The notes beneath the pieces are model-generated. The model saw nothing but the letters and a program-made list of their open reading frames with translations, did not search any database and was not told the origin of the DNA. A DNA stretch of 62,855 nt, filler included, from Hausera hauseri (taxonomy: Eukaryota), in assembly GCA_046269625.1 (NCBI GenBank). It is 11 parts of 11 records of this genome, joined end to end, with 100 filler letters (N's around TTAATTAATTAA, not from the genome) between each part and the next. Parts side by side here need not be neighbours in the genome. Positions count along the whole stretch, not along the records: positions 36,502 to 42,161 come from JBJURY010211189.1; 10 more parts are not named here. One strand, 5' to 3'. A program made the position numbers and the translations under genes. Positions 4,193 to 48,118 of this stretch are shown in pieces. Position 1 is the first letter of the stretch. Every line of letters starts with the position of its first letter.

Positions 4193-4291
4193 CCCCACAA
4201 CACCTTTCACCTCAAAGACCGTCGGGCAGCTGCCGGACCTGATTACGGATGTTCGGCCGCCCAGAGATCGCCAAACCGGCGCAGTGATGTC

Positions 4292-5545
4292 ATGCGTCGG
4301 GCTGTCGCGCCGGCGCCGTCCGGACGCCCGGCGTGTTTACGTCACGCACCGCAGTGCCCATCCGTCGCCCATACCCCCTATCTTTCTCTTCATTTTTTAA
4401 TCAACAACAGAAACATATACACACACACATGGAAGGACACACTAGACGCAACACGCATCTACCACCACCTTGCCAACCTGCTAGGTTTCTCTAGTTTTTT
4501 CTTATCCTACAACGGTCTCACTATCCACAACTTCTACGATCTTCTTCACTTCAGAAAGACTTTCTTTCTTATTCATATCAACTTCAAAATCCTTGGCGGC
4601 ATGAACTCCCGATCCTCCATTGACACTACGGAAAAGCCAAAATCTATCCCGATATTACGCTGCGCCGGTACAGTAACACTCCCGGTTTCCCTTTTGGACA
4701 CCACTGTACCAAACCTGGCTTCAATTCCATCACCTCTGGTTCCAATCTGCAAACATCACCGAATCTCTCTCAAAAGCCCCTAGCCTCTTTTGCTATCTAC
4801 CAAATTCAATTAAAACTGGAATACCTAATCTTTTACAACTCTTCGAACATCCTGATCCTTACAAGGAGCTATATAATGCCGTTCTTAAGTTTAAAGAGCT
4901 TTTCTTGCATTCTATTATTCAACGTTACTTCAAGAGAACACCCTAAGCTATCAACAGCTCTCCAAATTCTTACAAATAGCCCTTAATAACTTAAAAGCAC
5001 TGGGTGTAACACGGGAACACAATGCAGATCTCCTAAGACGCTATTTTCTCCACGCTTTACCCCTACAAATTAGGAGCACGTTGACCGTGGTTGAGGAATC
5101 ATTAGATCGTAACAAACTAACCGAGTTAGCTGATAAATCATATGAATAAATGGAAAAGCACACTACCCCACTTATCTCTACCACTATCACATCAAAGGAT
5201 ACACAACAAAACGCATTACAACAACAAATAACTCAATTAAAGGCTGACAACAAGGCGCTGATAGAAACCATTAACAGTATAAAAAATAAGTTGAGCCGAC
5301 GGACCTTTTCCAGACAGAATTTTCCGGGTGCCACCCATTCCGATGGACCTCCACTGCACAACAGACGACCGCTATCGCCCGTACGATCGTCTATTTGTTA
5401 TTTTTATAACAATTTCGGAAACAATGCACATAAATGTTGCATTGGGTGCAAATTATTTACATCTAAATTTAAGTCAGGCAACAACATTTGCATCTATCAT
5501 TCTAAGGCCATAAAATGTTTACCAGGATGCAATTTCAACTCATAG
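4292..5545 (+). pseudogene. gag: Ubiquitin-like domain fused to Gag (two tandem CHCC motifs)
   Basis: 4382-4600 encodes about 73 aa ending FLSYNG...[10 protein letters not shown], with ATG at 4601. Gag motifs FWxxxYQTWL, LRRYFLHALP, LTELADK, CYFYNNFGNNAHKCCIGC. Confidence 0.8.
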
Positions 5546-14146: not shown

Positions 14147-17100
14147 CTTCTAAAAATTTATCCCAGTCCTTTTGATCTTTCGCTACTACGGTCAATAAGA
14201 CCCGTAGAACTGTTGCATTCATACGTTCAACCATTCCGTTGCATTGAGGGTGATATGCGGTAGTTGTCAATCGTTCGATCTCAAAAATTTTGGTAATTTT
14301 ATCAAATAATTCGTTTGTAAAATTTCTTCCTATATCGGTTAGTATTTGATCGGGAGGTCCATATCTGCAAATAATTTTTCTCACTACCACATCTGCTAAT
14401 GTTTCCGCTTTTTGATCGATTAATGCGATCAATTCGACAAAGTGTGTTAGACGGTCTACGCATGTCAGAATATATTTGTTATTTTTGTGAGATGTAGGTA
14501 GAGGTCCTACTATATCCATAGACATGACATGCATAGGTCTATCTGGTACGTTAATCGGTTTTAATTCTGCTACATAGTTTTTCACTTTTGTTTTGTTGCA
14601 CAGACTTTGCAAGCGTCCACCCAATTCTTTTCGTCGATATAAACACTTGGCCAGTAATACTTATTTAATATCCTTTCTAACGTTTTCTTCCATGACATGT
14701 CCAGCTAAATGCGAATCATTTTCGGCCCTTAACACTTCTGTTTGTAATTCTTTTGGAATAACTACTAGTTTCCGTCCTTTTCGTTCGTAATATAAAATAT
14801 TATCTTGATTCGATGCATAATATTTATGTCCATGTCTCTGTAAGTGTTTCTTTAGCTGATGTCCTTTTGACATTTCGTCTTGCTCGGCAAATTTGACACT
14901 TGTTATATAACCTTATCTTTAGCTTGTTCTGAAGAAATTTTAATTGTTTTATTTAGTGTTAAAGCCCGTTCTCGTTTGACTAATTCCTCAAGTTGGGTCT
15001 TTTGCATGGTCGTAATTGTACTTGTTTTTGTTTTAGGTCTCGATAAAGCGTCTGCATTGATATGTTTGCTTCCGGGTTTGTACTGGAATTCAATATTGTA
15101 TCGGGAGATTTTCTCGATTCACCGATTTAGTCTACATGTCGGGTTGTTGGCCCGTCCCGTAAGCGTCGTAACAGCCTTGTGATCTGTCCGTAGACATAGA
15201 CATTAAAATGCCTTAAGGCTTCTTTTACGGCTAGTGTCTCCAGTTCAGTGACTGAATAGTTCTTCTCGGCCTTTTTAAGTGATCGTCCTCCATATGCAAT
15301 TGGATGCTCCAATTCTTTATCTTCTCGTTTCTGAGCCAATTTGTAACCATTTCCTTCTTTACTCGCGACTGTATTAATTATGAATGGTAAATTGAAATCG
15401 GGGTATCTCAATACTGGTTCAGTAGTTAGAATTTTCCTCATTTCGTCGAACGCTTTCTGTTCGACATCGGTTTATTTCCATTTTGATACCTTTTTTCAAT
15501 AGCCGATATAATGGCGCATTTATTTTCGAGTTGTCTGGTACGTAAGTGGCATAATATCCACATAAGCCTAACCAATGCCTTAATTCTTTCTGATTCTGGG
15601 GTTCCATGCAATCCGATATTTTATTTAGTAAAGATTTATCTGGTTTTGACCCTCCTTCTCCGACTATATGTCCCAGATAAGATACAGCATTTTGAGCCCA
15701 TTTACATTTCTTTGGGTTTAATTTCAATCTTGCCTGTTCCAACCGCATAAGAGTATCTTCGATGTCCTTTATGTGTTCCTCTTCTGTTCTTGATGCTATC
15801 ATTACATCGTCTAAATATGCAAACGCGCGATCGAGTCCCATTAACATTTTATTCATCATTCTGGTGAAGATAGCTGGGCCGGTTGTTATACCGAACGGCA
15901 TGACGTTAAATTCGTAGACTCCGTCGTGTGTTTTAAATGCCGTTTTATAACGGTCATCTTCTTCAATTTCTACTTGCCAATATCCCGATTGCAAATCCAA
16001 TGTGGTAAACCACTTTGCTCCTGATAGTCGGTCTAAAGCTTCTTTTACTGACGGTAGTGGAAATGAGTCTTTCATCATATGCGTGTTCAGGGCTCTGTAG
16101 TCTATACAGAATCGATGTTTTGTGGTACATTTTTTTTGACCATGAGTATTGGCGCGTACCAAGACCCGTAACTTGGTCGTATTATGTCGGCCTTTAGCAT
16201 ACGTTCTACTTCTTTGGTTATTTCAGGCCTTAACGAATGCAGTGGTGGGTACCATTTAGGCATCTTTTGCTCCTCCAAATCGATTACGTCATTAAAATCC
16301 GGTTTCTTTTTTAATGGAATGGTTAATCTTAAGGTTTCTGCTCTACCTATATCTTCCTCGTTTTTAGTGATAATCGACTTATATTTATATAATAATTCGT
16401 AAAATTGACAATATGCTTCTGATGAAAATTTTGCTTCAACGTGAGGTGGAAACTCGGCATATTTATAAGGTTTTTCTTCGATTGTTATTGCCGATACTTT
16501 GTAAGTTTACCCAATGTCGTGTTGGCATACAACTTTACGGGAGTTGGTGCATTATTAACCAATCTGACTAGTACTCTTCATGTCGTTACTCTTGTCAAAA
16601 TGTTACTGAGTATGATGCTTTGGTTAACACCTTCTTGTGGCTCAGAATATACTGGTTGGTCGTCCTCTTCTCGGATCTGGGCATAAATTAACGTTTTGGT
16701 TTTTGGTGAAATATTTTCATCGACGGGGATCCATACTTCTCCTAATTTCCTTTCTTTCATTATCTTAATCCCATTCACTGGCCCAAATTCAAGTAGTTTT
16801 CCAGTCTGTAGGTTTATTGCTACATTCGGTAATTGTTTCAGTATATCGCAACCTAGCACTACATCATCGGTTAGTTGGTCCATTACGGCGAACTTATGTC
16901 AAAGAGTTTGACTCATTAATTGAACTAAAGGATTCCATTTAAATTTTGGTTTGGATTCTTGCCCGAAGGCTCCTATGCTGCCTGGGTCTGACGACGAAGC
17001 TGAATGCAATTGTTTTCGTAGCATTGGCAGCAATGATTCCAGCTTAATAAACGATTTCTCTGATCCGGTGTCCATTAAGGCGTAGACTTCCCAATCTTCG

Positions 17101-17150
17101 ATGGTAACTTTGTGAAGAGTCTCCCTTCCGTAACCGTTCCATAACAACTT
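14147..17150 (-). pseudogene. pol: Pol: PR (ALMDTGSE), spacer, RT (RFCIDYRALN, YLDD), RNase H, IN (HDSHLAGH-type, MDIVGPLP, YHPQCNGMVER)
   Basis: ORF track pieces 16899-17147, 16578-16883, 15419-16162, 15127-15441, 14661-14873, 14091-14624. Confidence 0.95.
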
Positions 17151-17443
17151 GACACATCCTTTCGTCGTGACAAAATGATATTTTCAGTCAGATGTTTCAG
17201 TTCTTAGTTAGGGCATAAGTCATTAACTGCTATGTTATTTTTATTGCTTCTAATTAATGGTTCTTGTGCTATTGGATTTTGGGACGCCTTCATTCCTGAT
17301 GTTCCCCAGACTGTTTATCTTGATTCTATATTACGAGCTATTCTCGGCGAGTAGAGTATCCTATGGTCATCTTCCGCTCGTCGTTGACTAGCGATCTGCA
17401 TTTTCTTCAATACTCCGTATTGTTCTGTTCCTTTATAAGAGTC

Positions 17444-19458
17444 CTAATAGCAGAAGGTTTTTCGACAAAATTCCGATTTGTATGACACCATAGATGTTCT
17501 ACCATAATTTTCACATATTGGAGTTGTCGGCGGAATAATGGGCAAGGGTGCCTTAATTACTGAATACATCTTGTATCTATTTTGTCTGAGGATCGCTTCT
17601 CCTCCTTTAGGCTCACCATCATCGGATTCATCTTTTCGCGTTATTTTCTTAGTTTTCCGTTTTAGTAGAAGTGTGCGCCTTGCTCGCCGTTTATAATTAT
17701 GATAGCCGACATGTTGTTCAACGTCATTCTTCCATCGATTTTCTTCATAGGCTTTAAGCATTTTGCCCAAGGGTGTGATGATTGCGGTTAAGATTTTGAA
17801 GGAAAATTTTGTTAATGTAAATATTTCGTACCCATTTATGCTCGCTTGAATTACCGCCTTCACTAGTTGTACCAAAAAATAAATCGCTAAGAATCCCGAT
17901 GCGGCTTGTCCAAAAATTAAAAATCTTCCCATATTTTGTACAGTATTTCTGTGGTTACCCGTTGGTAATGGTTTGCACCAAGCAAGGATTCCCATTTAGC
18001 CTGGTATCGGGTATCGTCTACTACCGATACCATATCTCGCTTTAATTCGTGTGTTTGATATCGTGGTAGAGCAAGAAATTGTCGAAAAGCTTCGATTTCT
18101 TTAGGCTTGTAAATATCTTTTTGAGCTGTATCCTGAAACTTGTCATCAGTAATTCCTTTCGCTAAATTTGTTCCACTTAGTTTTTTAGGAATGATAGTGA
18201 CACCTCCATTAGGTAAGCTAACCCAATCTGTTTCGCTACGCGTAAATATTGGTTCACCCAAACTTGCTCTGCAATGCTTTAGGATTGTTGGTTGTGTTGC
18301 ATTATCTAGCAATACTCTAGTGAGGGGCACGGCTAGACGTGGGTTTTTCTGGTAGATTACGGGGAGCTCTTGTATGCATCGTTTTCCTCGACGTTGATTG
18401 GTACATCTCTTTTCTCGCATTCATATGTCAGGAGAACTTCGCCAGTAACTCGACCAAAAATTCCTTCTCTCATGGGAATAATTGGTGAGGCTAGCTCCGG
18501 GTTCCTATAAATAAGAGTTAATTTTGTCCTCATAATTTCCGTATTCAATTTGCAGTTATTAGTTATCATTTTATAATATAGCTCGGCTATCCCGACTTGT
18601 CCCTTGTAATAAAACTAATCATCTCGATTTTTCAGGTAATCTTCAATTCTAATGTCTTGCGTTTCTAAGTTATATGTTTTTGCGTTTATCTCCATTTCTG
18701 CGACGAAGAACGCTTTGTAGTTAGTGGTGAACATTACCACTTCGCAACGTGAAATCCTTTCCTTTTTATGAATTTCAATCCATGCTGATCAGACATTAAT
18801 ATCGTAGGTGTATAGTGCTCTGATACATCATCTCGTGCTCTTGAAGTGATTTCAGATTTGTCTACGTATCGTGTCCCGGTAGTTTCATTAAATTTCAATT
18901 CCCTAATTTTAATAAAATTACAGACTTTTCCGGCGAGTGGTTCCAATATGACTATGGAGTTTCTGAAGTTACAGATGCCGTCCTGTATGTGGCAATTTTG
19001 ATTCTCAGTGTATAGCTTAGTGACGCTATGGAACATCACTTTCTGTACTGGCATTTCCGATTCGTAAAAGTCAACTACTACTACATTTGCTTCTAATTCT
19101 TTCTCGGGGTCGTATTCTGCTCCACTACAGTGACCGTTATGCATATCTAACCTTCCAACTACTATCTTGTATGCTCTGATTATCTTTCCGGTTTGCATTT
19201 CTAGTTCCATAATATCCCATTTCAGTCTTCCGGTTTCTCTGGCCTGTTTGCAGTGTTGCCTTTCCGAATTCATTGGAATTGGAGGGGTCGCTGGTTTGAT
19301 TATTGAGGAATGCCCGTGCATTAGTCCACAGTGGAAAATACTACGAGATTGTCTCAGCATGCATTCCATCCCATCCAAAGATATTAACTCTTGTTGTCGG
19401 TATAGAAAATAGCTCTTCTCTTTTGTTTCCAATTTATGTGGTCTGACATCTTTACATG
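17444..19458 (-). pseudogene. env: Env-like class III fusion glycoprotein (chuvirus G / herpes gB-like) with TM and long cytoplasmic tail
   Basis: EC..SIFHCGLMHGHSSII..HCKQARETG, coiled coil ..NNCKLNTEIMRTKLTLIYRNP.., GEVLLTYEC..CIQELPV..PLTRVL..C..W, DIY, and TM FGQAASGFLAIYFLVQLVKAVI; Cys spacing fits chuvirus-type glycoproteins as recalled. Confidence 0.8.
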
Positions 19459-19558: not shown

Positions 19559-20290
19559 TATAACATGTCAAAAGATGTGCAAGAATGGTGCAAAGTTGCC
19601 TAACTTTTGCCACAAGGAAAAATACTGAAACAAAAATCAAAGTCCCTCTCAAACCATTAGAATACCCACAGCTCCAATGGAATTTTCAACAATGGACATT
19701 CTAGGGCCATTACCTATGACAGTAAATGGAAAAAAGTGTCAGTGTTCGTCGATTTATTTTCCAGATGGCCAGTCGTGATTCCAATACCATATTTCGGATA
19801 TTACAATTGAAAACAACTCCGTATCATCCGCAAACTAATGGTTAATGAACGACAGGATGATTGGAATGAGTATATTAAGCGTTGCTTATATTCCATTAGG
19901 AATACAATACATCCTGCGACGAAAGAAACAACATTCTATTTTATGTATCTCAAAGATTCTAACAAGCCAGTCGACCTGGATTTTAAAACATCTCTCACAT
20001 TTAAAAGATATGGTGTATAAAAAGTTGTTGGAAGAAAACTGGGATACATGAGATTTGGCTGCACGGTATATAAAGATTTGCCAAAAAGAATATAAAACTC
20101 GATATGATGAAAAAGCCAAACTGCATAACTTTAAACCCTGAGATAAGATTATGCTGCACATGCCTCTGAGAAAGAGAGGAAAATCTCCAAAGTTGGACAG
20201 ACCATACAAAGGCTCCCACATGATCCAGAATGTAGACGAAACCAATACTTACCTAAAAAATATAAGGAACAAAACGGGTCTCAATTTGTC
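19559..20290 (+). pseudogene. Gypsy integrase core and C-terminus, internally deleted
   Basis: KVPLKPL, MDILGPLPMTVNGKK, TTPYHPQTNG, QDDWNEYI, SPKLDRPYKG. Confidence 0.9.
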
Positions 20291-20889
20291 AACAATAGCA
20301 CTTATAAGGATAACCTTGATAAAATGTATATCGACCAAGCCTTTAGATGTAAGATACAAATCCGTCCGAGTTGGAATATATCCCTGTATAAAATACAGGC
20401 CAATCAAAATTTAACCGTAGATGATTATGCACACATATCGAAGGTATCTACGTCACAAGCGGCCACTCCAGAATTTTGTGATCTATATGCTAACAACTCT
20501 GTTCATATCTGCTAGACTTTCGTTTGAAATATCGTATAGAATCCAATATGCGACCGGGAAAAGAACAAACGGAAAATGGTATAGATCCGCTTATTCATAT
20601 CTTCGCACAACACTATTTCAATAAACCTGATTTTCTTGTTAAATTCTACACCAGTTGTGAAAAATGGACCACGTATAACAGCGGAACCAGAATTTTCAAT
20701 TACAAAATATGGAACGATAGAGTATTGGATTGAAAACAAAACTGAGAACATAGTGTGGACCAGATTATCACAATCCTTACCTATGCTCTCATATCATTTT
20801 ACAAGGAATATACAATGTTATTGGACAGGAAAAAGACACGCGATAAATGGATACGGTAAAAAACGTCAGATGGATCAGAGGTAATAAAA

Positions 20890-21450
20890 AAGTCTCCAAG
20901 AGTGACAATGACAACTATTCCAACAAAAACGATAACTAATTCGACACCAAAAAAATAGTGACTACTCCAATAGTTGAGGTTAAGAAAGTCATTTGAGTGT
21001 TAGACATATCTGTACAGTCAACTGTACACTCTCTTATAATCACCGTAAGAGATCTGAAAATTACAAATGTAAAATTCAAATGTTTCCTTCACAACATGAT
21101 GGTAGGTGAAGGAGTATTAACACCAGAAGGGCGAACATCGGTTTGTGTCTTCTTAAAAGCAGACAGAAATCACAAAATTATAATTACAGAATTGGATGAA
21201 GATGTACGAAGTTTAGAGACCGTTAAACAGATGGAGAAGACATTATAACAAATGATTATAACAACCAAAAGTACCATTAAAAAGGTTACTTCACGGAGTC
21301 CTGAAAACATCCCGAAAGGACATCATGAAGTGATCATCACCTTAAGTGTCATTTTGTTACTAATAATTATATTGCTACCTACAGTAATTCACTGTTCAAA
21401 AATAAAACCTAGGGAAAGAAAAACTAAAATGTTACGCCAATTAAAACTGT
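20890..21450 (+). pseudogene. Type I membrane protein (Thr-rich linker, FN3-like beta domain, TM)
   Basis: TMTTIPTKTITNST..VLDISVQSTVHSLIITV..VCVFLKADRNHKIIIT..IITTKST..VIITLSVILLLIIILLPTVIHC followed by a basic tail. Confidence 0.55.
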
Positions 21451-22219
21451 TAATGGAAGATTCGCAAGACAAATCGGGTAATGACCCAAATGCGCCTCTT
21501 AGTAATAAAAAACGGCAAGCTGAAGAGCAAGCCGACCCTAAACGGGACATCCGACCGTTGACAGACATTACCCTCTCCATGTACCCAAGTACAAGACAGG
21601 GCCGTCAAACTTATTGCGATCTACGTTGAACAATCGAAATTCAAAAATATACATATTTCCAAATTACTTTAGCCGCTATTAATGTTTCTTTTGCAGTTAA
21701 AGAAGGTTCAGAAACAGTACAGCGACCGAACGGTTTCTATTACAACTCTCTTGCCAATCTGTCAGCCACAACCCATAAATATTCCGCATATTATGGTACA
21801 GCATCAATAATCCACAATAATCTAAAGGAGCATTCAGTAACCCCAAGAAGTAGTTTAATCGTGAAACTACCTAATACCTCAACAAATCTATCCGATCTCA
21901 TAGATATCGGTGAAAGCACGATTGCCGTCTACATTTCAGTGATTAAATAGAGTATCCAGATTAGAAGCAGAGCTTATACAATATTATTGACATGAGTGAA
22001 ATCGTCTCAATGACCACTGTTAGTTTGGATTCCCGATTTTATAAAAATGTCATTACCCTTCGAACCTACAATGGTCCTCTTCCAGTAATATATATGAAGG
22101 TAATGCGAAAAAATCGTATCTTGTCAAAAATACATACTCCCACAATATTCAGCGCCAGTTTCAAAGCCATTACACATACAAGAAGGAATTCTGTTCCTCA
22201 GGTCCCCGGTCACATCTAA

Positions 22220-22712
22220 AAACGATTTATTAATAATAGCTGGTAAGGCTGCCTACCTGATGACTCCAGTTAGGAAAAAGGATATGGCTCTAGCGGAAGT
22301 AACAATAATGAATTTTGATGGCAAAATCATATTTGACCAGAAAACCTGTCCTACGGACAGAATAGACAACTATAATAGTCACATAATTGGTCTAGAAGAA
22401 CCAGACCTAATAGGACAAATTGATTCCTACCCGGCAGAATGTACAATTAGAAAATACATAATTGGAAATATGGTAATTGGATTTGATCTTTATATGTTTA
22501 CCCATAGCATGCCTTGTGATTACAAAAATTTACAAGGAATGAGAGAGCTACTCTTCCATAAACTAATAAATCCAACAGGAGAAGCAACTATAAAACAAAT
22601 ACTTACCCAACACAACAATGGCAATTATCCACCAAGGACTAAAGAAAAAGCTGCCACAATTCTAAGGATCTATCAATCCATCCTGGAATACCAAAAAAGA
22701 TCGAATATCTAG
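22220..22712 (+). CDS. REXO4/ISG20-like DEDDh exonuclease-fold protein, catalytic residues apparently lost
   Basis: ALAEVTIMNFDGKIIFDQKTCPTDRIDNYNSHIIGLEEPDL aligns with the REX4-type ALARVSIVNYYG.VVYDTYVKP.EPVTDYRTAVSGIRPEHL; GNMVIGFDL resembles GRILVGHAL and EKAATILRIY resembles EDARAAMRLY. Confidence 0.75.
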
Positions 22713-23219
22713 AAACATTAACCTCAGAGGAACTTAGAAACCTAAACAAAAATACGCAAATAGGTGTGTAGGAAATTTTAAATGCTACAATGCCTATCCA
22801 GTTAGTGCCAATTCAGACGCTTCTTCAAAGTACAATCCCAACTCAGATATTTTCGTCAAGCGCAATACCAACTCAGATGCTCCCGCAGACTTCAGTTGAA
22901 AATTGTAATATTCACATAGGAATTAAAGTGTGATGACTAGATTGGTCGAATTGTAGTTTTCTATGCTCGCTTCTATCCACTCAATGCCTTTTACTACTGC
23001 TTCTAGACCTACACCACATATTAGTTTTAAAGAATAATCCATGACTGCAATCCATGAATTTCCATATTTACTGCGGCTTCCATTAACCTCAGTAAAAGCT
23101 ATATGAACGCCTCAGTTTGCAATGACCCAGACAAAGAATCGGTTGCCAATGGACCCAAGAAGTCAATTCATTGAGGCTTATGTATATATTGAACAGTGCA
23201 AGAACCCTATGGTGTAAAG

Positions 23220-23635
23220 CAGTGATTCCCAAAGTGAGAGTCACCGCCCCCTGGTGGGCGCTGCAGTGATCCAGGGGGCGGTGATGGCCACAGGTGCATT
23301 TGGGGGCGATGAATAACTTTAAGGGGGCGGTGAAAGCATAAGAGAAAGAAGAGAAGATTTAGAAAAAAAATTATATAAACTGTTTAACTCGGTGCTGGAA
23401 TTCTTGAAAGATAAAAATGATGCTTGCCGATCCAATTTAATTCAATCCAAAAGTGACATCGCTAACTTGACAGACTTGTTTCAAAAATTTCATGAAAGCA
23501 ATCTTCAGCTTCAAGGTGATGAAGTGAATTTAATAAAAACAAAATCTGTTATTTCTGCACAAAACTTCTTCTGTACAAACGAAACTTTGGACGAGGGGAA
23601 TTCAGCCAGTTCCCAAATTTATCAGGAGCAGAAAA
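23220..23635 (+). mobile_element. hAT (Buster/Charlie-type) element, left TIR plus internally deleted transposase
   Basis: TIR CAGTGATTCCCAAAGT preceded by the 8-mer GTGTAAAG (nnnTAnnn); ORF DIANLTDLFQKFHESNLQLQGDEVNLIKTKSVISA is typical of ZBED8/FAM200-like transposases. Confidence 0.85.
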
Positions 23636-23735: not shown

Positions 23736-24350
23736 ATAAACCAACGGAAGACATTAACAACAACGACCAAAACATGTACAAACGGATTTGGTTAAAGAAT
23801 TTTACAACTCCCATGTCGCATTGGTTTTGAGGCGGTTCGGTGTAAACCACTACTCGATGTTTTTGCAATACAAGACTGAACTCTTTGAACGATTTAATCA
23901 AACCTTAGGCGGTCGACTGAACAAATTCTTTACGAACCATGGCAATAAACTCTGGATAAATGTACTACCGGATATTATCTATGCATACAATCATTCGACA
24001 CTTTGTGGCATCAATGGATTACGACCGGTTGATATAACCGATAATTTTAACATGTGGCTTTATTAAAACCAAGCAGAACGACGACGACGACCAATTAAAC
24101 GCCGTCCCAAGTATAAAATCGGTGATTATGTACGTAATTAAAAGCTGAGTACACCATTCATTAAGAATTTTAATCATAAGTGGAGCGATGATGTTTCCCG
24201 AATTTCAGCCATTAATACAAAACAAGCGCCTATTATGTACGTTTTGGAAGATGAAAATAGTGACAAAATACATGGCAAATTTTACGAACAGGAACTGCTA
24301 CCGGAAAACCTGATGTGTATCGTATTTAGGAAATTCTACCTTCACGCGGC
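23736..24350 (+). pseudogene. Polinton c-integrase C-terminal half
   Basis: KEFYNS..ERFNQTLGGRL..LWINVLPDIIYAYNHS..KYKIGDYVR..HGKFYEQELL. Confidence 0.9.
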
Positions 24351-24400
24351 AAGTGGCACGTATACAGTACACCAAGTTGGATATTTGCATAACACATTGA

Positions 24401-25436
24401 GTGATGAGCATTTATTTGGTATTTGATAATAACAGATTATCAGAACATGACAACAACAATGTCAATAAACGGTTTACCATGGTTTTTGACCAGACGTTCA
24501 ATTTACGCCACGGTGCCTGGAAAGTAGCTTTGGCGGAATCCACGTTTATATTTTCACCAATAATAATACTAATACAATCTTCTGCATCTAGTTGTTTGCA
24601 GTTAGTCAGAGACTAATGGATTTCAAGTTCGCAATTAGAAGCGACAAAATTTCACATTTTATATTTTTCATTTATACAATCGATTTGTGCTCATACACAA
24701 ACATCCTATTGAAAACAATTTAAATCACTAGTTGACGCTCAGGCATGGGGTTTTAAATCTGTCTATGTGCGCTCGAAATATCTACAGCTCGGTGGACATA
24801 ACATAATTATAGAAAAATTGAACTTTTCTGAAAAAATCTTGAATACCACAGATACTACAGTAAACTGGCAAAAGACTGAATCATTCTTTTACTCTCATAC
24901 AACAGGAAATGATTTTCTTACGGAAACGGAAACAGAATTGTATGTAACCATCAAGGCAGTAGCTAAATTGGCTCTCAAGACATTTTAATTACAATTGTTT
25001 ATTATTGTCGTTTACACTACATGATAATGTTGCACATTTGGCCCTTGATGAACTATTGGCACAGAATCTGGGTTTTGAGAAACGCGAATTCGGTCAAACT
25101 GGCGGCGGCAGTCGACCTATTGTTGCTAAATACAAACCACGACTATATGGAGAATTTTATCGAATTAATATTTTAACGGATCTAACCGAACCTGTATGTG
25201 TTGGCGTAGACTGTAAACAACTATTGGCTTCTACTGGACTGGATTCGGACACGTACAAAACATCGGGCGAAACTGCTTATGTAAATATCATCAGACCAGT
25301 GTATTTATCGTTATCGCACAATGTTGTACACATGATTTCCGTGTATGTAGTAGGCGAATTTTGGAAACCCATTAAATTTCTGTTTTCAGCCAAGACCCAT
25401 TTGATGCGACATTTTCATCGTCGTCGTCGTCGATAA
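24401..25436 (+). pseudogene. Polinton minor capsid (penton-like) paralog 1
   Basis: N-terminal FTMVFDQTFNLRHGAWKVALAE; C-terminal INILTDLTEPVCVGVDCKQLL..PVYLSL..KPIKF..HF. Confidence 0.75.
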
Positions 25437-25484
25437 TAAACAAACTGTATCATTATTATCATCATCATCATCATCATCATAATC

Positions 25485-26550
25485 ACGTGTATTTACATAG
25501 TGTTACCGAGCAATAGTTGTCCGACTACTCGTCCAAACAATTGGACCAATAAATACGTTGTGGATTGGGACAATCTGTTAGATTTATCCGTCCGATGGGA
25601 GGTTGCACTGACGGAATTTAACTTTCCCTATGCAACGGTGACATTGAAAGGTGGAGTGAAAATAACGTACAACAAGACTGTTACTGAAACGAAATCACAA
25701 TCCTGTCGTCTGACAATTAATAATAATACACTGACTGTCGGAAACCCTTCCATTTGCACGACAGATATAAATAATAATGTACAAGAAGGTATAATCTGTG
25801 TTTATATTCTACAGGAAAAAGTACAGTTTGATTTAAAAAGCGAATTTACTGAAGCTTCGAGTCTATTGAAATGGCGCAAAAATTTAGACTCAAAACTGCA
25901 GAACTCAAAGGTAAGGTTGTTTCTGGTGATTACGAAGTGCACCAAGACTCAGTCCAGTATTTTGCGACACATCGGTGAAATTTGCTCTTACTGGACAAAG
26001 GGTGTGGACATTAGATATATCAATTGGCGATAACGTCTATTGTGAATCAGTAACAGATCTCTGTCGACACTTTTCGCTTAACAGGTACAAAGATATATTG
26101 AAGGCTTTCACGTCAGATACAAATGGCTACATCGCAATCTAATTGAATAAGGATGTGATTGAAATTTCCTTGGGTAAAGTTTTGGCCATGGTATTGGAAT
26201 TTGATTAACATCGGTATGAGGCGAATACGAAGGTACATGTTGCAACATCTAAACCAAAGCTTAAAAACTCACTACGTCAGATGTACATTTACACGAACGG
26301 CACCGAACGGATTCTGGTGGGTGAGGTACGTGTGCCGCTACTCCGTTAAATTTGTCAGGAAAGTAACAGATATACTTCTGGAGATAATGTCACTGTCAAA
26401 CTTGATAATCCAATGTATTTACCTGTGGCAACTACATCTATAATCAATGTTGAAGTGAATATCAGATGTGACGCGGGCTACTTTATTGAATTTCCATACG
26501 GTACCACAACCACTCTAACTCGTCATTTCCGTCGAAACCAACATGATTGA
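25485..26550 (+). pseudogene. Polinton minor capsid (penton-like) paralog 2
   Basis: LPSNSCPTTRPNN..LDLSVRWEVALTEFNFP; C-terminal MYIYTN..LVGEVRVPLLR..NPMYLPV..IEFPYG..HFRR. Confidence 0.85.
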
Positions 26551-26942
26551 TTCTGAAATTGTTTCCATTTACAGTAAACCCCAGCAAGGTGGTGAACTGC
26601 CACATTTCGTTGGTAAACAGTTTGGCTCTGGATGGTTGCGTACATTAGCATGTTTAGCATTTCCAGCGTACTGGAGCCGTGGCAGCAAAAACAGCACAGG
26701 ACGTACTATATGAAAACAAATCTATTTTACCATCACTGAAGGAACACGCCTTGTCTGAAATAAAAAGCGCTGCACCGAGAGTCGTTGACTCGGTCAAAAA
26801 ACTATTCGCTGGCAGTGGCTTGATGATGAGAAAACAAAAACGTAGAGCATCATCGAGCTCATCAGCTATAAACAAACGTCGTCGTCGTACCATTTTCGAT
26901 GGATTGATTGACAGACAGACAAATGGCATGTGCAAAATCTGA
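26543..26942 (+). pseudogene. Polinton core-like protein with QQGG/GSG protease-type sites and Arg-rich tail
   Basis: MIDSEIVSIYSKPQQGGELPHFVGKQFGSGWLRTL..AGSG..KRRRRTIFD; one frameshift. Confidence 0.75.
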
Positions 26943-27704
26943 ATTACGTATATTTGACAAACCCGCACCACAAGTTGTTATTGAAAATACGGCATTTGAA
27001 GAAATCTACTCCGTTGATTCGGTTTCAACGGACGATAACATTAACATTCAATTAAACATTATGGCATCGTACAATGAATATCTGGATTTGAACGATATGC
27101 TACTCTATGCAAAAGTCATTGTTAAAAAGGACGCGTCAGCGGTTCTCGCTGCAACAGACACTGTTACATCGGCCAATTACTTTTTCCTTATACTGTTTCA
27201 GGAGGCTTCACTGACTCTAAACAGAGTCAAAATTGAAGAAAACACCAGTCTATACAGTATCAAAGCACTCATTGAAACGGCTCTGAATTACAGCGCAGAC
27301 ACGAAAACGACTTATTTGGCGAAAATCATCGGAACGATGCCACAGCGGCAAATTGTCAGGCATGGGTGGCAGAATCAAAACCGCTTACAATGTGTGGACT
27401 GCTGTACTTTGACTTTTTCAATCAGCGGAAATACCTAATACCCGGTGTTAAAGCTGTGATTCGGCTCAAACAAAGCGACAGTGTCTTTTGTTTGAAAACC
27501 GCCGTTGAAAATCTTAAAGCCATACTGAAAATACCGGAGGCACGATTATACCTACGTCGTGTAAAGGTAGAACCATCCGTGCTCATGGGACATCGATTGG
27601 GCTTGGAAACGCAAAATGCCTGTTACTCGATACAACGCACAGAACTCGTGTTTTACACCATACCCAAAGGTTCAACTACGTTTTACAAAGATGCACTGTT
27701 TGGC
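26923..27704 (+). pseudogene. Polinton major capsid protein (double jelly-roll, PY), N-terminal part
   Basis: MACAKSELRIFDKPAPQVVI..EYLDLNDMLLYAKV..DFFNQRKYLIPGV..IPEARLYLRRVKV; runs into a gap. Confidence 0.88.
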
Positions 27705-36401: not shown

Positions 36402-36501
36402 NNNNNNNNNNNNNNNNNNNNNNNNNNNNNNNNNNNNNNNNNNNNTTAATTAATTAANNNNNNNNNNNNNNNNNNNNNNNNNNNNNNNNNNNNNNNNNNN
36501 N

Positions 36502-37145
36502 CCATCCGTCATCCTTTTCTCCATAGTTTACGGCCAATATCCGGGTATTTCGGCAATCTGGGACTAATCTGTAAGATTCCCCATTTTGCTCTATTTCGTC
36601 TTTAGATGGTTTCTGTACATATAATAATGGGGGTAGCGGCTTCATCATTTCTGTTCGCCATGTCATTTTGATCATGATTTTAGTCGGCAGGTCTGCAATC
36701 CTGAGTTCCAGAGCATAATTCATAAGCCTATAGCAACATAGCTCATAAGTGCTAAATTTCCACTGTTGTCCCTTTTGTGTGCTCCGGGATTGTCCTACAA
36801 TCCTGTACTGAATTTCTCCATAAGCGACATGTACGTACAATTGCTGATGTGTTGGCTCATATGGGATTAGATCTTTTAATAGGTATGCTCGTACATCCTT
36901 TGGACTTCGCATGGCGTATAATCGGACCAATCTATTCTCTTCCAAACCCCATTTTAGTCCGTTCGGTATTTTACTCTTTTGGTTGAATTCTAGATAATTC
37001 TGGCTTTTCAAATTTTCTCCAGTTTGTCGGTATAGGTTTTTGGATAATGGCTTGAGGACAGTAATGTACTGCTGCAAGAAATTATCCATATCGAAATTGG
37101 GACTGACTGATGAATTCTTCGCCTTCTCGGTCATACTTACTCTGC
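36502..37145 (-). CDS. Orphan accessory ORF behind a splice acceptor
   Basis: Open for more than 200 aa (MTEKAKNSS...) up to the gap; preceded by TTTTATTTTTATTTCAG. Confidence 0.5.
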
Positions 37146-37239
37146 TGAAATAAAAATAAAAATTAATCCTAAGACAGATCATCGTTTTGAAACAAAACAT
37201 TTTCTCTATCTGAAGATAGAATAACCCGATCTGTAGTTG

Positions 37240-38079
37240 TCAAATTATGCTATCATAAGGTCCGTCTCGGTGCCCATTTACCCATTTATCTCCTTTATGA
37301 TTTTTACAGCGTTTATTACATTTTTCGGGAACTAGAAAAATCATCGCTTTTATTATGACAAGAACAAAAATTGACAAACTGAATATAGTTATTATCGGTA
37401 AATTACTCGCCTCAATAGAACTTTCCGTGGTGAACACATTTTGAGTACTGATATCTTTATATGGCATTACTTCAACTTTATTGCCAAGAGTTCGTACTGT
37501 GAAAGTTTTAGGATTCTTACCCTTTGAGATAATTCTGATTATATAGTCATGTTGCGGTTGTAATGACCTACATTCAGCTTCTTGACTATTCTTTTTCAGG
37601 ATCATGACTTGGTTGGTGTGCAAAGTACGACATTCGATCTTAACGTCTTGACTAAGTGTCTATTCCGCGTAAAATACAATTTTATCGCTTTTCGCCAAAA
37701 TCTTAACTGGCATGCTTCCGGGCTTTTCGCCCGAAGTGACTATCGTAGTAAGGAGAATTATACTTGGAATTGTAAATGGTGTACTTGTAATGCTTGGAAG
37801 AGGAAGGTCCCATATTTCAATTCTCGGGCGATGTCCACACAAATAAGTGCTTGCATCTCCGGGGTACGTATTGTACAAATCGAATTGCAACTGATACTTT
37901 TGCCTTAGTTGTATTACATACCACGTAGTGCGTCGGTGTCTGGCCAGAAAACAATATTTCGGAATAGGAATGGAAGCATTCAATGGTATAAATCGGACAG
38001 AAATTTGTCTGTCTCCAGGCAGTTCTATCTTAGTTTCAATTCGCATGCATTGATTCTTCAAATCCTTGTAAATTCCCAT
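37240..38079 (-). pseudogene. Ig-like + FN3-like type I membrane protein
   Basis: Same frame with one TAG at 37660; DASTYLC (Ig DxxxYxC), Thr-rich linker, SLQPQHDYIIRI (FN3 LxPxxxY), TM LPIITIFSLSIFVLVIIKAMIFLV. Confidence 0.6.
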
Positions 38080-38090
38080 AATGTTATAAT

Positions 38091-41000
38091 CTAAAGGTTT
38101 TTTAAACGGATCAATGCTTCGGATCTCGTTATGATTGACGATGTTTTCCTTTCTTTATTAACTTTATTCGAACGCAAATTATAGCGTTTATCTGGTCGGA
38201 TTTCCATTTTAACTACTCGCTGAATTGATATAGTCTCTTCCTTTCCACTTATATTTATATAAACTGTTGTCGGTGTAACCTTAGTAATTTCATAAGGTCC
38301 CCTACCGGTTCTAGTAAGTTTAAGAGATGTGCCCTTTCTCACCACTGAATAGTGTACGTAAACACAGTTTCCGGGTTTTATATCGTGTGGTGTAGCCTTC
38401 TTATCATAGTGCTTCTTAAATTGTTCCTGGCATTCTTTAGATAATTCTTTGGCTATTTCCCAACACCTGTGCAATCATGATTGTAATACTTCGATAAAAT
38501 TCTGCTCTAAATCTTCCGTTCTATTTGTGTATGGAATCAGTCCTAAATCGGTAGGCAGGACAGCTTGTCTGCCGTACGTCATAAAAAATGGAGTGAATCC
38601 TGTCGTAGTATGTGGAGTAGTATTAATGGCGAACTGTGTGCCTTCTAAGAACTCATCCCAATCTTTCTGGTCCTTCGCGACTACTGTCGATAAGATCCGT
38701 ATAATGGTCGCATTCATTCGCTCGACCATTCCGTTGCATTGGGGATGGTAAACTGTGGTAGTTAATCGTTCGATCTCAAAAATCGTAGTAATTTTCTCGA
38801 ATAGTTCAGTCGTGAAGTTTCTTCCTCGATCTGTCAATATTTGTTCGGGTGGCCCGTATCTGCAAATGATTTTCCGGACTACTGCTTCTGCCAACGCCTC
38901 GGTCTTTTGGTCTAATAGGGCTATAAGCTCGACGAAATGAGTCAATCGATCTACACACGTCAGAATGTATTTGTTATTCTTGTGGGTCGTAGGCAAAGGT
39001 CCTACAATATACATAGACATTGCTTGCATTGGTCTATCTAGCACGTCGATAGGCTTAAGCTCGGCGACGTAATTTTTTTCTTTTCTTTGCTTGGTTGCGC
39101 ATACTTCGCAAACATTCACCCAATTTCTTACGTCGATATAGATGCTCGGCCAATAGTATTTATTTAAAATCCTTTCTAATGTCTTCTTCCATGACAGGTG
39201 TCCAGCTAAGTAGGAATCATGTTTGGCCATGAGCACTTCCGTTCGTAGTCCTTTTGGTATGACGACCAATTTCCGTCCTTTTCGTTTGTAATATAACACA
39301 TTTTCGCGGTTCAAATCTCCAGTGATGCAGTATCTGTGACCATATCGTCGTAAGTGTTTCCGTAACTGATGACCCTTGGGTGTTACGTTGGTCTCAACGA
39401 ACTCGATAATTTGTTGTATAACCCTGTCTTTTCTCTGTTCGACAGCAATTTTTAATGCCTTATCCAGTGTGCGAGTCCGTTGTCTCTACTAAGTCTTCAA
39501 GGTGAGCTTTTCTCATTACCGTAACTGCGCTTGTTTTGGTTTTAAGTCTCGATAATGCGTCAGCATCGACATGCTTACTTCCGGGCTTATATTGGAACTC
39601 GATATTATATCGCGATATCTCCTCAATCCATCTGTTGAGTCTACAAGTTGGATTATTCGCTCTACCCTTCAAGGTTGTAACTGCCTTGTGATCCGGAACG
39701 ATTATGATCTTTTGTCCGTAGACATATACATTGAAATGCCGCAGTGCTTCTTTTACTGCTAATGTTTCTAGTTCAGTAACAGAATAGTTCTTTTCTACTT
39801 TTTTAGAGAACGTCCTCCGTATGCAATCGGATGTGCTAATTCCTCGTCTTCTCATTTTTGAGACAGTTCTTATCCGATACCTTCCTTACTGGCGTCTGTT
39901 TTGATTATTAATGGTAGGTTGAAGTCGGTATATCTTAAAACAGGTTAGTTAGTTAGTTAGAATTTTCTTCATTTCGTTAAAACCCTTTTGTTCAACATCG
40001 GTCCATTTCCATTTGATTTCTTTCTTTAATAAGCGATACAAGGGTGCATTTATCTTTGCGTTTTCTGGCACGTAGGTAGCGTAATATCCACATAATCCTA
40101 GCCAATGCCTCAATTCTTTTTGATTTTTGGGCTCCATGCAATCCGATATTTTACTTAATAGTGATTTATCGGGTTTTGATCCTCCTTCTCCAACTATATG
40201 TCCAAGGTAAGATACAGCATTCTGAGCCCATTTGCATTTCTTTGGATTCAGCTTTAATCCACCTTGTTCTAATCTCATGAGTGTACCTTCAATGTCCTTT
40301 AAATGTTAGTCTTTCGTTTTCGACGCAATCATGACGTCGTCCAAATAGGCGAACGCGTGTTCTAGTCCCATTAACATTTTGTTCATCATCCGGGTGAAGA
40401 TGGCTGGTCCGGTAGTTATTCCAAATGGCATAACATTAAATTCGTATATACCGTCGTGTGTCTTAAAGGCTGTCTTGTAACGATCTTCCTCTTCTATCTC
40501 TACTTGCCAATATCCAGATTGTAGATCAAGCGTGGTAAACCATTTAGCTCCCGAAAGTCTGTCCAAAGCTTCCTTTACTAATGGTAATGAAAAAGAGTCC
40601 TTCATCATAAGTGTATTTAATGCTCGATAGTCGATACAAAACCGGTGTTTACTGGTACCTTTCTTCTTAACCATAAGTATGGGCAAGTACCAAGATCGGT
40701 AGCTTGATCTAATTAAGTCGGCCCTTAACATTCGTTTAACTTCCTTAGTTATCTCTGGCCTTAACGAGTGTGGAGGAGGATACCATTTCTGCACCTTTTG
40801 ATCCTCTAAGTCTATTTCGTCATTCGATCCAGGCTTTTTCTTAAGCGGGATCGTGAGCCTTAAAGTTGTGGCTCGGCCGATATCTTTTTCGTCTCTCGCA
40901 ATAATTGAAATATAACAATAAAGTAATTCGTAAAATCGACAATACGACTCTGGTGAAAACTTAGTTTCTACGTGGGGCGGAAATTCGGTGCCCTTATATG

Positions 41001-41330
41001 GTTTTTCTTCGACAGTGATTGATGATACTCTATACGTGTGTCCCAAAGTGGTATTGGCGTAAAGTTTTATCGGAGTTGGTACATTATTGGCTATCCGGAT
41101 TGGCACACGACCAGGTGATACTCTTGTCAAGACATTGCTGAGCACGAATTTTGGATCGAGCGAATTTTTTGGCTCAAAACATATTGGCTGATCGTCATCT
41201 TGGCGTATCTGAGCATATATTAGGATTTCTGTTCTAGGCAGTATGGTTTCATCAGTGACATTTCCGATCCTGTATCTACTAGTGCATAAACCTCCCAATC
41301 TTCCAATTGAATCTTTGCATATGGCCTGCC
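38091..41330 (-). pseudogene. pol: Pol (PR partly deleted, RT, RH, IN)
   Basis: ALVDTGSE, RFCIDYRALN, YLDD, HDSYLAGH..CEVC, TDRGRNF, RGPYEI. Confidence 0.95.
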
Positions 41331-42161
41331 TGCGATCACTGTACCGTAATATCTTGGTGCTATCTTGGGTTGTCGTATGGTAGACATTTTGTAACCGTTA
41401 ATGGTAATTTCAGTGGTCCCGACTGGCTGCTCGACTAACTGTCTTAACTCCCCAATTGGGTATAGTGCGTTATTCGTTTCATTCGCGTTTTCCACTCTCT
41501 TGTTTCTAACTGGCGGCTAAAAATCTGAGGTTCGGAGATTTCGTGTTTCATGGCTTCGAGTAAATATCGATTGCGTTTCGTTCGGCTTAGGTATTCTGGG
41601 CAAGTAAATTATACCGTGGTCGTTGACTGCTGATCTATGGTGTAGAATCGAGGTTTTCTCTGTTTCGTGGATCTTACGCAGTATCCCATAGCGTTTCGTT
41701 GCTTCGTAAGGATCCTGTAAACTAAACGGCTTCCGATAGAGGTCCGTCAGGCACGAACTCATAGATTGTTTCTCACAATCTTCATACATGGGTGTTGTTG
41801 GTGGCAATATGAATAATGGTAGTTTCATAATGGAGTAATTTTTATGTCTGTTTGGTCTGAAAAGGACCTCTCCTCCCTTAGGCTCGTCATCATCGGAATT
41901 ACTTCTTCGTGTCTTACTATTTAAGAATTTTTGCCTCTAATCAATAACCAACATGTCGTTCTACATTTGTTTCTACTTTTTCTCTTCATAAGCCTTTAAG
42001 AATTTGCCAAAGGGAGTGATAATAGCCGTTAAAATATTGCACGAAAATCCTGTTAAGGTAAATATCTCGTATTCGTTTATGATGGACTGAATTATAGCTT
42101 TTACCAGTTGAATTAAAAAATATATCGCTAGAAATCCTGACGCAGCTTGTCCGAATATTAG
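41330..42161 (-). pseudogene. env: Env TM, cytoplasmic tail and linker to protease
   Basis: Homologous to 17110-17940 of copy A (LIFGQAASGFLAIYFL..LKAYEE..SDDDEPKGGE..PPTTPM..YGTV..GR). Confidence 0.85.
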
Positions 42162-42261: not shown

Positions 42262-43770
42262 AACCGGAAACTGTCGATGAAGCGAAGTCGGATTTTTCCA
42301 ACATGTTTGGTGAATGTGATATATTTCTCCTCACTGTTAGGGATCACATCCATATTGACATCAATGTTGCCTAATTTTCGGACTATAAAGTGTCTGTTAT
42401 AGCCGCTGAGATTATGGAATACTACAGGCACATATGTGCATGTTTTGTAGCGAAGATTGCAGTTGTTACATGCTGCGCCTCGATATACACCTGTAAAATG
42501 GTAGTGCTCCTTGACTTTCCAATTTTTCTTGGTGAAGGACTTGTCGCACAAGTAGCATAATGTTGCATTGTGCCATTCTTCTTCTTGCATCCAAGACATG
42601 CTCATGTCATCCTTATGTTGTTGCAACATTTTTTCTAGCTTATGAGCCATGTCTTCAAGTCTCTTCATGAAATATGCTGCTGTACTTGGACCCCTGAATA
42701 TATATGGTTCACTGTCCAATCGTTTGGCATACATACAATACGATGAGAGTTCGTAATATAGGTATGCCATTGTAGTGGTATATTGAGGACTGGGACTGCA
42801 TATGTGAATTGGTCTAAGAATGGCCTCAAAGTCGCAATAGACAAAAACTGGGACCTTGATCTTCTTCTCGAATTGCTTAAATTCAATATAGTCATCTTTG
42901 GGAAATTCTGGCCTTACACAATAATTGTTGTTGCAGTATATCTTGTGCTCTTTAAGCTTGTCCACGGCCTCTTCACGACTGAAATGGGACAATCATCGTT
43001 TGCATATTTCGATTCCGTGTTCATGCTTTGTTATTGGGAATCTGACTAAACGCTCAAAGTTCTTTATACAAACATAATGTTTCTTATCACTATCGAATAG
43101 TAAGAGCAGATCTCTATGATCTTCCAATTCAGCCTCACAGATTTGTAAGGGGTAGAATATGTCCTTCTCATCCAATCCAAAGATATTGATGGACATGTTG
43201 TTGATTTGGTTAAACTTCTTAATTCCATCTAAAGATGGAGGGAACTTAATACGTTGGAAGTCTTAGTTGTGCTGCACATCCGTATATAGCCAAATCCGAT
43301 CAGATGCATGCCTTTGATCCGTTATGAGTTTTGATAGAATGGCATACATGAAGCACCTGTTGTCATTATTGCGGACATTGATGCAAGCATTTTTCTGCTG
43401 AATCCATTCCGGAAGCTGCATATATGAACTGCCTCGCATGGGAGAGTATCTGCGTACATATACAAGCAGTCTCTTCATGGTTGCCAGAACCCATCCACTC
43501 TTCTTATCATGGCTTTCGTCGGCTTCACGGATCAGCTTCGTATGCTCTTAATGCAGCCAATCAGTTATATTTCTGTTTTCCAATATGGGCCTATTTTTGG
43601 TCTTAAAAACCCTATTTGATTCTTCAGCATCGACAGTGATGCATGTGGCCTCAAGTTTCATATTAACCTTAAGAGACTTGAGCTAAGTTATATTGTCCTA
43701 AAAGATCCTCTTTGTTTCTTCCTTTGCATATTCCAGGAACTCCTTAATGGTTCTTTGCCCAGCTGCATCA
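42262..43770 (-). pseudogene. Polinton protein-primed family B DNA polymerase, N-terminal/exonuclease part with endonuclease VII-like insert
   Basis: GSSYMQLPEWI..INVRNNDNRCFMYAIL, FVYCDFEAIL, CYLC..EHYHFTGVYRGAACNNCNL, VVFHNLSGY, FIDSFR. Confidence 0.92.
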
Positions 43771-47667: not shown

Positions 47668-48118
47668 GATATGAAGTTGAACAAAGCGATGCTGACCCGA
47701 TATGGTACTGGTGATGTAACTACTGATGGGGCTGTAGATGTGATGCAAAAGGCTTGTTGGAATAGTATGGTCATCGATTTTTGGTGAAATTTCACAGAAA
47801 TTGAAATGCTGTGGCACATACAACAAAATGGAGTGGCTCGATTCTGTGTGGCATGCCAATCAGTTTGGTCAAATAAAAATTGAGGTTCCATCGAGTTGCT
47901 GTATCGATTCGGATTGTGAGTACAACTCAACTTCAAGAAACACGTACACCAATGGGTGTATATCACAATTAAAATCGTTCCTCAAAACATGTTTCCCCAT
48001 TGTAATCGGCATCGCATTGGGAATTGCAATATTTAATACATTGTTTCTTATCTACATTGTATGTCTCTGTTGTAATGCGTATGTCCAGCATCAGTCTGTG
48101 TACTATCATACTATATGA
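47668..48118 (+). CDS. Tetraspanin, 3' exons (EC2 loop + TM4)
   Basis: AVDVMQK / short intron ending TTCACAG at 47797 / KLKCCG..W..VPSSCC..NGCI..TM4 IVIGIALGIAIFNTLFLIYIVCLCC; 5' exons not identified, so it may be a fragment. Confidence 0.85.

Follow-up and report, generated by a model that had tools for sequence, protein, structure and literature searches.

In Hausera hauseri, the integrase of a decayed Ty3/gypsy element is followed at once by a reading frame, ORF X, which we read as the remains of an accessory gene for an FN3-type surface glycoprotein. The element carries its env gene before pol, and adhesion or attachment appears to be the most likely role of the protein. We put the probability of this overall reading at roughly 0.45. 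An earlier note on this DNA had described, immediately behind the integrase, a frame for an Ig/FN3-like cell-surface protein in an element with a class III fusogen. A type I membrane protein of FN3-like design at this position is supported by the domain layout of the frame and the fold matches, and the fusogen by a match to the Pfam family PF24664.

Organization of the window and of the element

The window, that is, the whole stretch of DNA that was analysed (62,855 nucleotides), consists of 11 separate contigs. Between them stand 10 identical 100-nt spacers of the form N44-TTAATTAATTAA-N44, for example at 36402-36501, which carry stop codons in all six frames. Because the contigs are merely joined by these spacers, the "copies" B and C named in the earlier note are unlinked fragments, and adjacency across spacers is without meaning. 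Elsewhere in the window, Pfam matches were observed for endonuclease VII (42264-42992, minus strand), tetraspanin (47744-48115, plus strand) and Armadillo repeats (3473-4780, plus strand). The Armadillo-repeat frame reads like what we take to be an importin-alpha pseudogene. The frames at 23736-27704 (plus strand) are without a Pfam match and presumably resemble, as judged by eye, Polinton/Maverick integrase and capsid genes.

Copy B occupies the contig at 36502-42161 on the minus strand, in the order env end, protease, RT, RNase H, integrase, ORF X and ORF Y (Table 1). The pol order of protease, RT, RNase H and integrase, as given by Pfam, is that of Ty3/gypsy elements (Metaviridae), with a weak protease motif (E 0.23). 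Stops fall inside the tblastn matches of the copy B pol. The first 62 codons of the contig match PF24664 (Monjiviricetes_fusion) with an E-value of 2.8e-10 (41976-42161). In copy B as well as in a sibling element, a class III fusogen gene thus stands upstream of pol, which is the arrangement of GAG-ENV-POL errantiviruses with gB-type env. The contigs of both elements begin inside env. We also observed that the env TM region, the env tail and the protease motif share one frame with stops between them (41220-42161, minus strand), a Burro-like in-frame env-pol arrangement. A search of the 5.66-kb copy B contig, from env to ORF Y, for an LTR pair or a long direct repeat found none, and an Rfam search of the same contig gave 0 matches.

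Table 1. Features of copy B and of the fragments compared with it
Feature	Position	Strand	Basis
Decayed Ty3/gypsy pol (protease, RT, RNase H, integrase) with stops and frame changes	38091..41519	-	Pfam RVT_1, RT_RNaseH, Integrase_H2C2, rve
Class III fusion glycoprotein gene, C-terminal end (TM region and tail), upstream of pol	41520..42161	-	PF24664; frame comparison
ORF X, apparently 5'-truncated, stop-interrupted gene for a probable FN3-type single-pass membrane protein	37240..38154	-	Frame analysis; similarity to P0003 and P0004
Distal beta-sandwich domain, second of three in P0003, holds DASTYLC	37804..38079	-	29/92 identical to P0003
Ser/Thr-rich linker	37720..37803	-	S+T 0.43 over residues 96-118; homologues 0.43 and 0.58
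Membrane-proximal domain, probably FN3-like, with conserved Cys pair, L-x-P-x-x-x-Y and internal TAG	37477..37719	-	35/80 identical to P0003
Transmembrane helix	37330..37386	-	Hydropathy 2.79, residues 232-250; modelled helix, pLDDT about 80
Short basic cytoplasmic tail, 28 residues, ends in Y-x-x-I	37243..37326	-	Tyr and Ile invariant in 3/3 sequences
ORF Y, 246 stop-free codons in frame straight after the ORF X stop, runs off the contig	36502..37239	-	Frame analysis
Sibling element, env then pol, no gag between	14147..19458	-	74.8% nt identity to copy B over 2589 nt; PF24664 in three frames
Membrane-protein remnant after the copy C integrase, with a Thr-rich stretch, a beta domain with two Cys (20997-21245), a Thr-rich stem, a TM helix (21333-21389) and a tail	20893..21629	+

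The reading frame of ORF X

ORF X runs on the minus strand from an ATG at 38079 to a TGA at 37240 and comprises 279 codons (280 with the stop). A frame with a single TAG just after the integrase had been claimed before, and this TAG was recovered at 37660-37662 (codon 140). The stop-to-stop frame opens at 38154. The integrase frame stops at 38091-38093, and the two overlap by about 20 codons. The ORF X frame contains 1 stop in 304 codons. In 20,000 base shuffles the mean was 21.5 stops and the minimum 7, and none of the 20,000 had fewer. The frame is real and not due to chance.

The features described for this frame in the earlier note are all present: DASTYLC (37857-37837), a Ser/Thr-rich stretch, LQPQHDY (37563-37543), a TM helix and a short tail. 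The hydropathy scan likewise agrees that no signal peptide is visible, as copy B has no N-terminal hydrophobic leader. The distal domain of copy B contains two Cys, against four in the matching part of P0003, one of the two homologues described below. In the tail, a neighbouring frame fits P0004, the second homologue, better than the ORF X frame does (score 33 versus 13), but it does not fit the P0003 tail. The copy B tail may therefore hold a compensated frameshift pair. A frameshift within the distal domain was considered as well and found to be unsupported. Across the 551 codons of ORF X and ORF Y together there are just 2 stops, and no intron is visible; ORF Y has no match in Pfam, in the PDB or within the window. 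Copy B is dead: it is truncated and interrupted by a stop, its pol is broken too, and it cannot make a working protein.

Homologues and conserved residues

In a phmmer search with ORF X against 1,835,955,588 representative proteins, only two matched. P0003 is an unbroken protein of 479 aa (37% identity, E 7e-37), and P0004 has 189 aa (44% identity, E 5e-30). Each forms a single-member ENA cluster. Copy B, P0003 and P0004 are mutually 34-46% identical. P0003 begins like a signal peptide, continues with three beta-sandwich domains and Thr-rich linkers, and closes with one TM helix and a short tail that ends in Y-x-x-I; it carries 4 N-glycosylation sequons. By hydropathy only, its hydrophobic segments are 17-27 and 429-447; the former reads as a predicted signal peptide and the latter as the TM helix. 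Domains 1 and 2 of P0003 are repeats of each other (z 9.8, 0/1000 shuffles), whereas domains 2 and 3 align weakly (21/1000) and domains 1 and 3 not at all (623/1000).

Copy B aligns with residues 159-459 of P0003 (35% identical, E 7e-46), and the similarity starts at 38151. Because the match begins at residue 159, the leader and the first domain are missing in copy B at the integrase junction. Copy B thus looks 5'-truncated, and truncation would explain the absent leader better than splicing. The latter had been suggested as the source of a signal peptide and is disfavoured, since the similarity to P0003 crosses the AG near 38092 and P0003 has a leader of its own.

Three elements are kept in all three sequences: the Cys pair of the proximal domain, its L-x-P-x-x-x-Y, and the terminal Y-x-x-I, which we take to be a tyrosine sorting-type motif. 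As these key residues persist in three diverged sequences, they point to long purifying selection. Two more specific claims did not hold. The internal TAG was thought to sit where an FN3 domain could have a Trp, and neither of the two homologues has a Trp at this column. DASTYLC was read as an Ig motif; in P0003, the sole homologue that spans it and on which its conservation was judged, the Tyr is kept and the Asp and Cys are absent.

The host paralogue that the earlier note proposed to look for was not found among the 1.84 billion representatives. So few relatives and no conserved host family would be as expected of fast-evolving element cargo. A word-index search for homologues confirmed none of 289 candidates with ORF X, and with the three-sequence alignment it returned only P0003 itself (1 of 4141). 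This search is lossy, because even P0004 was missed. Against PDB sequences, ORF X gave nothing below E 0.6, and against bacterial and archaeal genomes 62 pattern matches were obtained, of which 0 were confirmed. No receptor relative was detected by sequence among the representatives, in Pfam or in the PDB.

Fold of the encoded protein

The domains of ORF X are probably FN3-like beta-sandwiches, as judged from low-confidence models. The single-sequence model of copy B has a mean pLDDT of 48. It contains a seven-stranded domain at about residues 125-206, with a block pLDDT of 56-73. Among 48,161 chains searched with VIA, the best match of this proximal domain was fibronectin (6mfa, Z 8.5, rmsd 2.2, 77 aligned residues), the only structural match of copy B at Z >=8; mixed Ig-like folds come next, and Z-values of 7-8 are common in VIA for unrelated beta-sandwiches. 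Foldseek gave 0 matches at E<=0.001 for the copy B model, the best being a contactin FN3 domain (E 2.7e-3). The distal domain is modelled with low confidence in copy B and as beta in P0003.

The P0003 model, built from 3 sequences, has a mean pLDDT of 50. Here Foldseek returned 255 matches at E<=0.001 (best E 7e-9), with tandem FN3 fragments of fibronectin, gp130 and contactins at the top ranks. Whole-chain rmsd exceeds 16 A for these matches because the modelled orientation of the domains is arbitrary. In VIA, FN3 and other Ig-like domains matched it at Z 6.5-8.7, with a designed Ig protein in the top row. The Atlas look-alikes include FNDC5 (0.87) and other FN3 proteins, all below 0.9 and thus leads only. 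In BFVD, 147 matches were obtained at E<=0.001; they are generic FN3/Ig repeats, found in phage tails and in large DNA viruses, with no specific relative among them.

In sequence terms, no Pfam family was assigned to ORF X. None of the three proteins reaches the 25-bit cut-off of PF00041 (fn3), the best score being 13 bits (E 0.12) for P0004. As PF00041 stays below its cut-off, we use the label "FN3-like" rather than filing the protein as a member of the family. FN3 domains are marked by a strand-F Tyr within L-x-P-x-x-x-Y and by a strand-B Trp. The L, P and Y are invariant in 3/3 sequences, and the modelled proximal domain is a seven-stranded beta-sandwich that superposes on FN3, with low model confidence. 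The proximal domain of copy B or P0004 contains no Trp. An Ig V/I-set domain (D-x-x-x-Y-x-C) was rejected, since the Asp and Cys are not conserved in P0003.

Relation of ORF X to the element

We consider it probable that ORF X is part of the Ty3/gypsy element. It lies on the strand of pol, adjoins the end of the integrase frame and overlaps with it, and its A-over-T skew has the same sign as that of pol (0.12 versus 0.15-0.26). Near the end of the contig, an 11-nt purine run at 36510-36522 (minus strand) is followed by TG, 10 nt from the contig end, with ORF Y open across it. This run is a possible, weak candidate for a PPT with the start of the 3' LTR. A 13-nt purine run at 38156 was rejected as a PPT because no TG follows.

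Presence across the copies of the family, which had been proposed as a check, was addressed by a profile search. It detected ORF X by sequence in one of the seven integrase-bearing contigs of the window. Of the other six, four represent distant families and one ends too early. The only close sibling, at 14147-19458, has a contig that ends inside the integrase and so before the position of ORF X. A search with the integrase for longer relatives listed 120 of 147 matches, the best at 43% identity. Among these 120, none belongs to the copy B family, none lies on a contig with the length of those that encode P0003 and P0004 (4939 and 16242 bases), and 0/120 pol proteins have an ORF X-like extension.

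Comparison with copy C

In copy C (contig 19559-23635), a C-terminal part of an integrase matches the integrase end of copy B (33% over 87 aa, E 5e-10). It is the only match to this end in the window besides copy B itself. A membrane-protein frame follows this integrase remnant and is broken by stops and a frame change over 20893-21389. The earlier note had called it equivalently placed to ORF X. The Thr-rich, beta-domain and TM layout after the integrase is indeed there, while the standard alignments between the two are not significant: blastn, tblastn, HMM, local alignment and hhalign were all negative. In the local alignments, the real score was reached by 1286, 1196 and 1948 of 2000 shuffles; the hhalign probability was 0.5%. 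When the proximal domains were aligned end-to-end, both Cys fell in register (z 3.8, 3/2000 shuffles; reversed control z -1.7), in a post hoc test whose boundaries and scoring were picked after the standard comparisons had failed. The Atlas search with the copy C domain remained at chance level (best 0.80). From these comparisons, the chances that the two frames are homologous seem about even, and the copy C remnant would be either a distant homologue or an analogue of ORF X.

Further frames were noticed in copy C. After the membrane-protein frame, a 202-codon frame at 22104-22709 (plus strand) matches ISG20 (1wlj, E 0.0024) and ISG20L2 (E 0.024), and is likely to be a captured exonuclease gene, judging from these matches. 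A literature search returned nothing relevant on such an ISG20-like exonuclease in elements. The frames at 20576-20866 and 21630-21950 (plus strand), which flank the membrane-protein frame, have no Pfam match above chance.

Proposed role and alternative explanations

An intact gene would encode a type I membrane glycoprotein. Behind a signal peptide, this protein would have three FN3-like domains in tandem, with Ser/Thr-rich linkers between them, and then a single TM helix that leads into a short tail. Such a gene would presumably be expressed from its own subgenomic message. The protein would enter the secretory pathway, probably with cleavage of the signal peptide, and would be displayed on the surface of element-expressing cells and probably also on budding particles. 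There it could help particles or carrier cells to make contact with the cells that they target, and the class III glycoprotein would carry out fusion. Among the functional options, adhesion or attachment is our tentative first choice, followed by a decoy or entry-blocking function. This order reflects that no catalytic or signalling domain was found in the ORF X protein, that tandem FN3-like domains stand on mucin-like stalks, and that the tail carries the tyrosine motif. G proteins of the mononega/chuvirus type are generally able to bind receptors alone, so that an attachment partner is not required. That this invertebrate Ty3/gypsy lineage has a two-component envelope appears doubtful. In that reading, a captured class III fusogen before pol would be joined by a dedicated attachment glycoprotein of FN3 repeats after pol, which different subfamilies, represented by copies B and C, would retain in highly diverged form.

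Instead of serving entry, the gene may act on the host cell, where its product could be a receptor-like decoy for a host ligand, block re-entry of related particles or route host proteins into endocytosis via the tyrosine motif. Cytokine-receptor ectodomains have this layout of tandem FN3 domains with a TM helix and a short tail; the fold matches include gp130, IFNAR and IL-receptor chains, and the Atlas look-alikes FNDC5 and IL-11 receptor alpha score 0.85-0.87, as leads only. Planarian Burro elements bear host-modulating domains (PMC6431247), and copy C has its ISG20-like exonuclease frame. The fold matches are generic, however, and no receptor family stands out among them; nor did the sequence searches reveal a receptor relative, so that we regard action on the host cell as possible but unlikely. 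It is quite improbable that ORF X is passive cargo, a host cDNA that was captured once, carried without benefit and is now decaying. The truncation, the stop, the lost cysteines and the small number of relatives would fit such cargo. The decay is element-wide, though, because the pol of copy B is broken too, and the Cys pair, L-x-P-x-x-x-Y and Y-x-x-I are kept at 34-46% identity, with no host parent among the 1.84 billion representatives.

The position of ORF X invites two further explanations. It could lie outside the element, as a fragment of a host gene or of another mobile element that abuts a truncated pol by accident. No LTR is seen on the contig, the 5' third is lost exactly at the integrase end, as might happen at a recombination or insertion junction, and the 13-nt purine run at 38156 lies close by. 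This explanation is improbable in view of the strand and composition shared with pol, the nearly stop-free and intron-free run of ORF X and ORF Y, the parallel layout in copy C and, weakly, the PPT-like run followed by TG at 36522. Alternatively, the two-domain form of copy B could be natural and obtain its leader by splicing or by a -1 frameshift from the integrase. An AG at 38092 does precede the first ATG, and two overlapping slippery-type heptamers at 38103-38106 stand before the integrase stop, with ORF X in the -1 frame. Only 8 of the 15 bases before the AG are pyrimidines, however, and the similarity to P0003 continues upstream past it to 38151, P0003 being one contiguous protein with its own signal-peptide-like segment. 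As for a frameshift, 13 such heptamers occur in the 5.66 kb, those at 38103-38106 probably arose by chance from Lys codons, a fusion to the integrase would leave the ectodomain without a signal peptide, and no extension of this kind was seen in the 120 listed pol proteins. A naturally two-domain protein is thus very improbable. An accessory surface glycoprotein gene of the element, now decayed, accommodates these observations best.

Significance and comparison with known systems

Searches of openly readable papers, without Repbase entries and bioRxiv supplements, turned up no earlier description of a membrane protein with FN3 domains in a Ty3/gypsy element. Accessory ORFs after pol as such are already known in invertebrate LTR elements (PMC5408684). 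How env-carrying retrotransposons move between cells outside Drosophila is stated to be unknown (PMC13524379), and a second surface protein is a candidate for cell targeting or host modulation. The survey in that article, as its text describes it, sought gag, pol and env only. Its table gives 8 of 9 flatworm entries without an LTR listed within the 3-kb search margin. Extra 3' ORFs could explain these missing LTRs, as could the 14-kb and 99%-identity limits of that survey. Our observations suggest that the region from pol to the 3' LTR be annotated anew. Copy B itself is a dead fragment whose value is that of a pointer to a family; its weight is reduced because the copy is dead, its family is small and its place between LTRs is only probable.

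The closest known systems are the GAG-ENV-POL errantiviruses (Ty3/gypsy, Metaviridae) with HSV/gB-type env, described from Nematoda, Bryozoa and Platyhelminthes (PMC13524379). Copy B shares with them the Ty3/gypsy order of pol and a class III fusogen gene placed before it. By eye only, the Cys of the sibling env are spaced much as in the Schmidtea C1a rows of that article, a likeness that makes a flatworm host plausible. Errantiviruses of this type have three ORFs, whereas copy B has at least two more frames after pol; the main text of PMC13524379 makes no mention of fibronectin or immunoglobulin. The Burro elements, giant gypsy-like elements of planarians, have env in frame between gag and pol, matches to mononegavirus fusion proteins, and accessory ORFs (PMC6431247). 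The shared frame of env end and protease motif in copy B is similar. The Burro cargo named in the article text comprises BIR, BCL2, ankyrin, MATH, SUMO-like and dUTPase domains and no FN3 membrane protein (PMC6431247). A Pfam search for BIR, BCL2, ankyrin and MATH domains found none in the short stretch of copy B that is present.

LTR retrotransposons of bdelloid rotifers carry an extra ORF3 that encodes TM proteins, a DEDDy exonuclease or a GDSL esterase (PMC5408684). Like the elements described here, they have accessory ORFs after pol, among them small TM proteins and exonucleases. Their TM ORF3s have other layouts and replace the canonical env, whereas the TM protein of copy B is additional to the fusogen. 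Their exonuclease is of the DEDDy type, while the copy C frame is ISG20-like, a different type. The word "fibronectin" does not occur in the text of PMC5408684. A planarian nidovirus contains fibronectin type II modules, which have a different fold (PMC6211748).

With animal FN3 type I membrane proteins such as FNDC5, cytokine receptors and contactins, the ORF X protein shares topology and a probable fold. It differs from them in that no significant sequence match exists, the Cys pairs lie inside the domains, the proximal domain of copy B or P0004 is without a Trp, and the gene is located in a retroelement. Among viruses, poxviruses use FN3-type cytokine-receptor decoys, and herpesvirus gB works with the separate attachment proteins gD and gH/gL. 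A sequence relationship of ORF X to herpesviruses or poxviruses was not found among the representatives, in the PDB or in BFVD, and both likenesses are functional analogies only: to poxviruses in the use of FN3 ectodomains, and to herpesviruses in combining a class III fusogen with a separate Ig-fold surface protein. If a two-component envelope were true of this lineage, a retrotransposon would divide attachment and fusion between two proteins much as herpesviruses do, and this would offer a handle on cell targeting.
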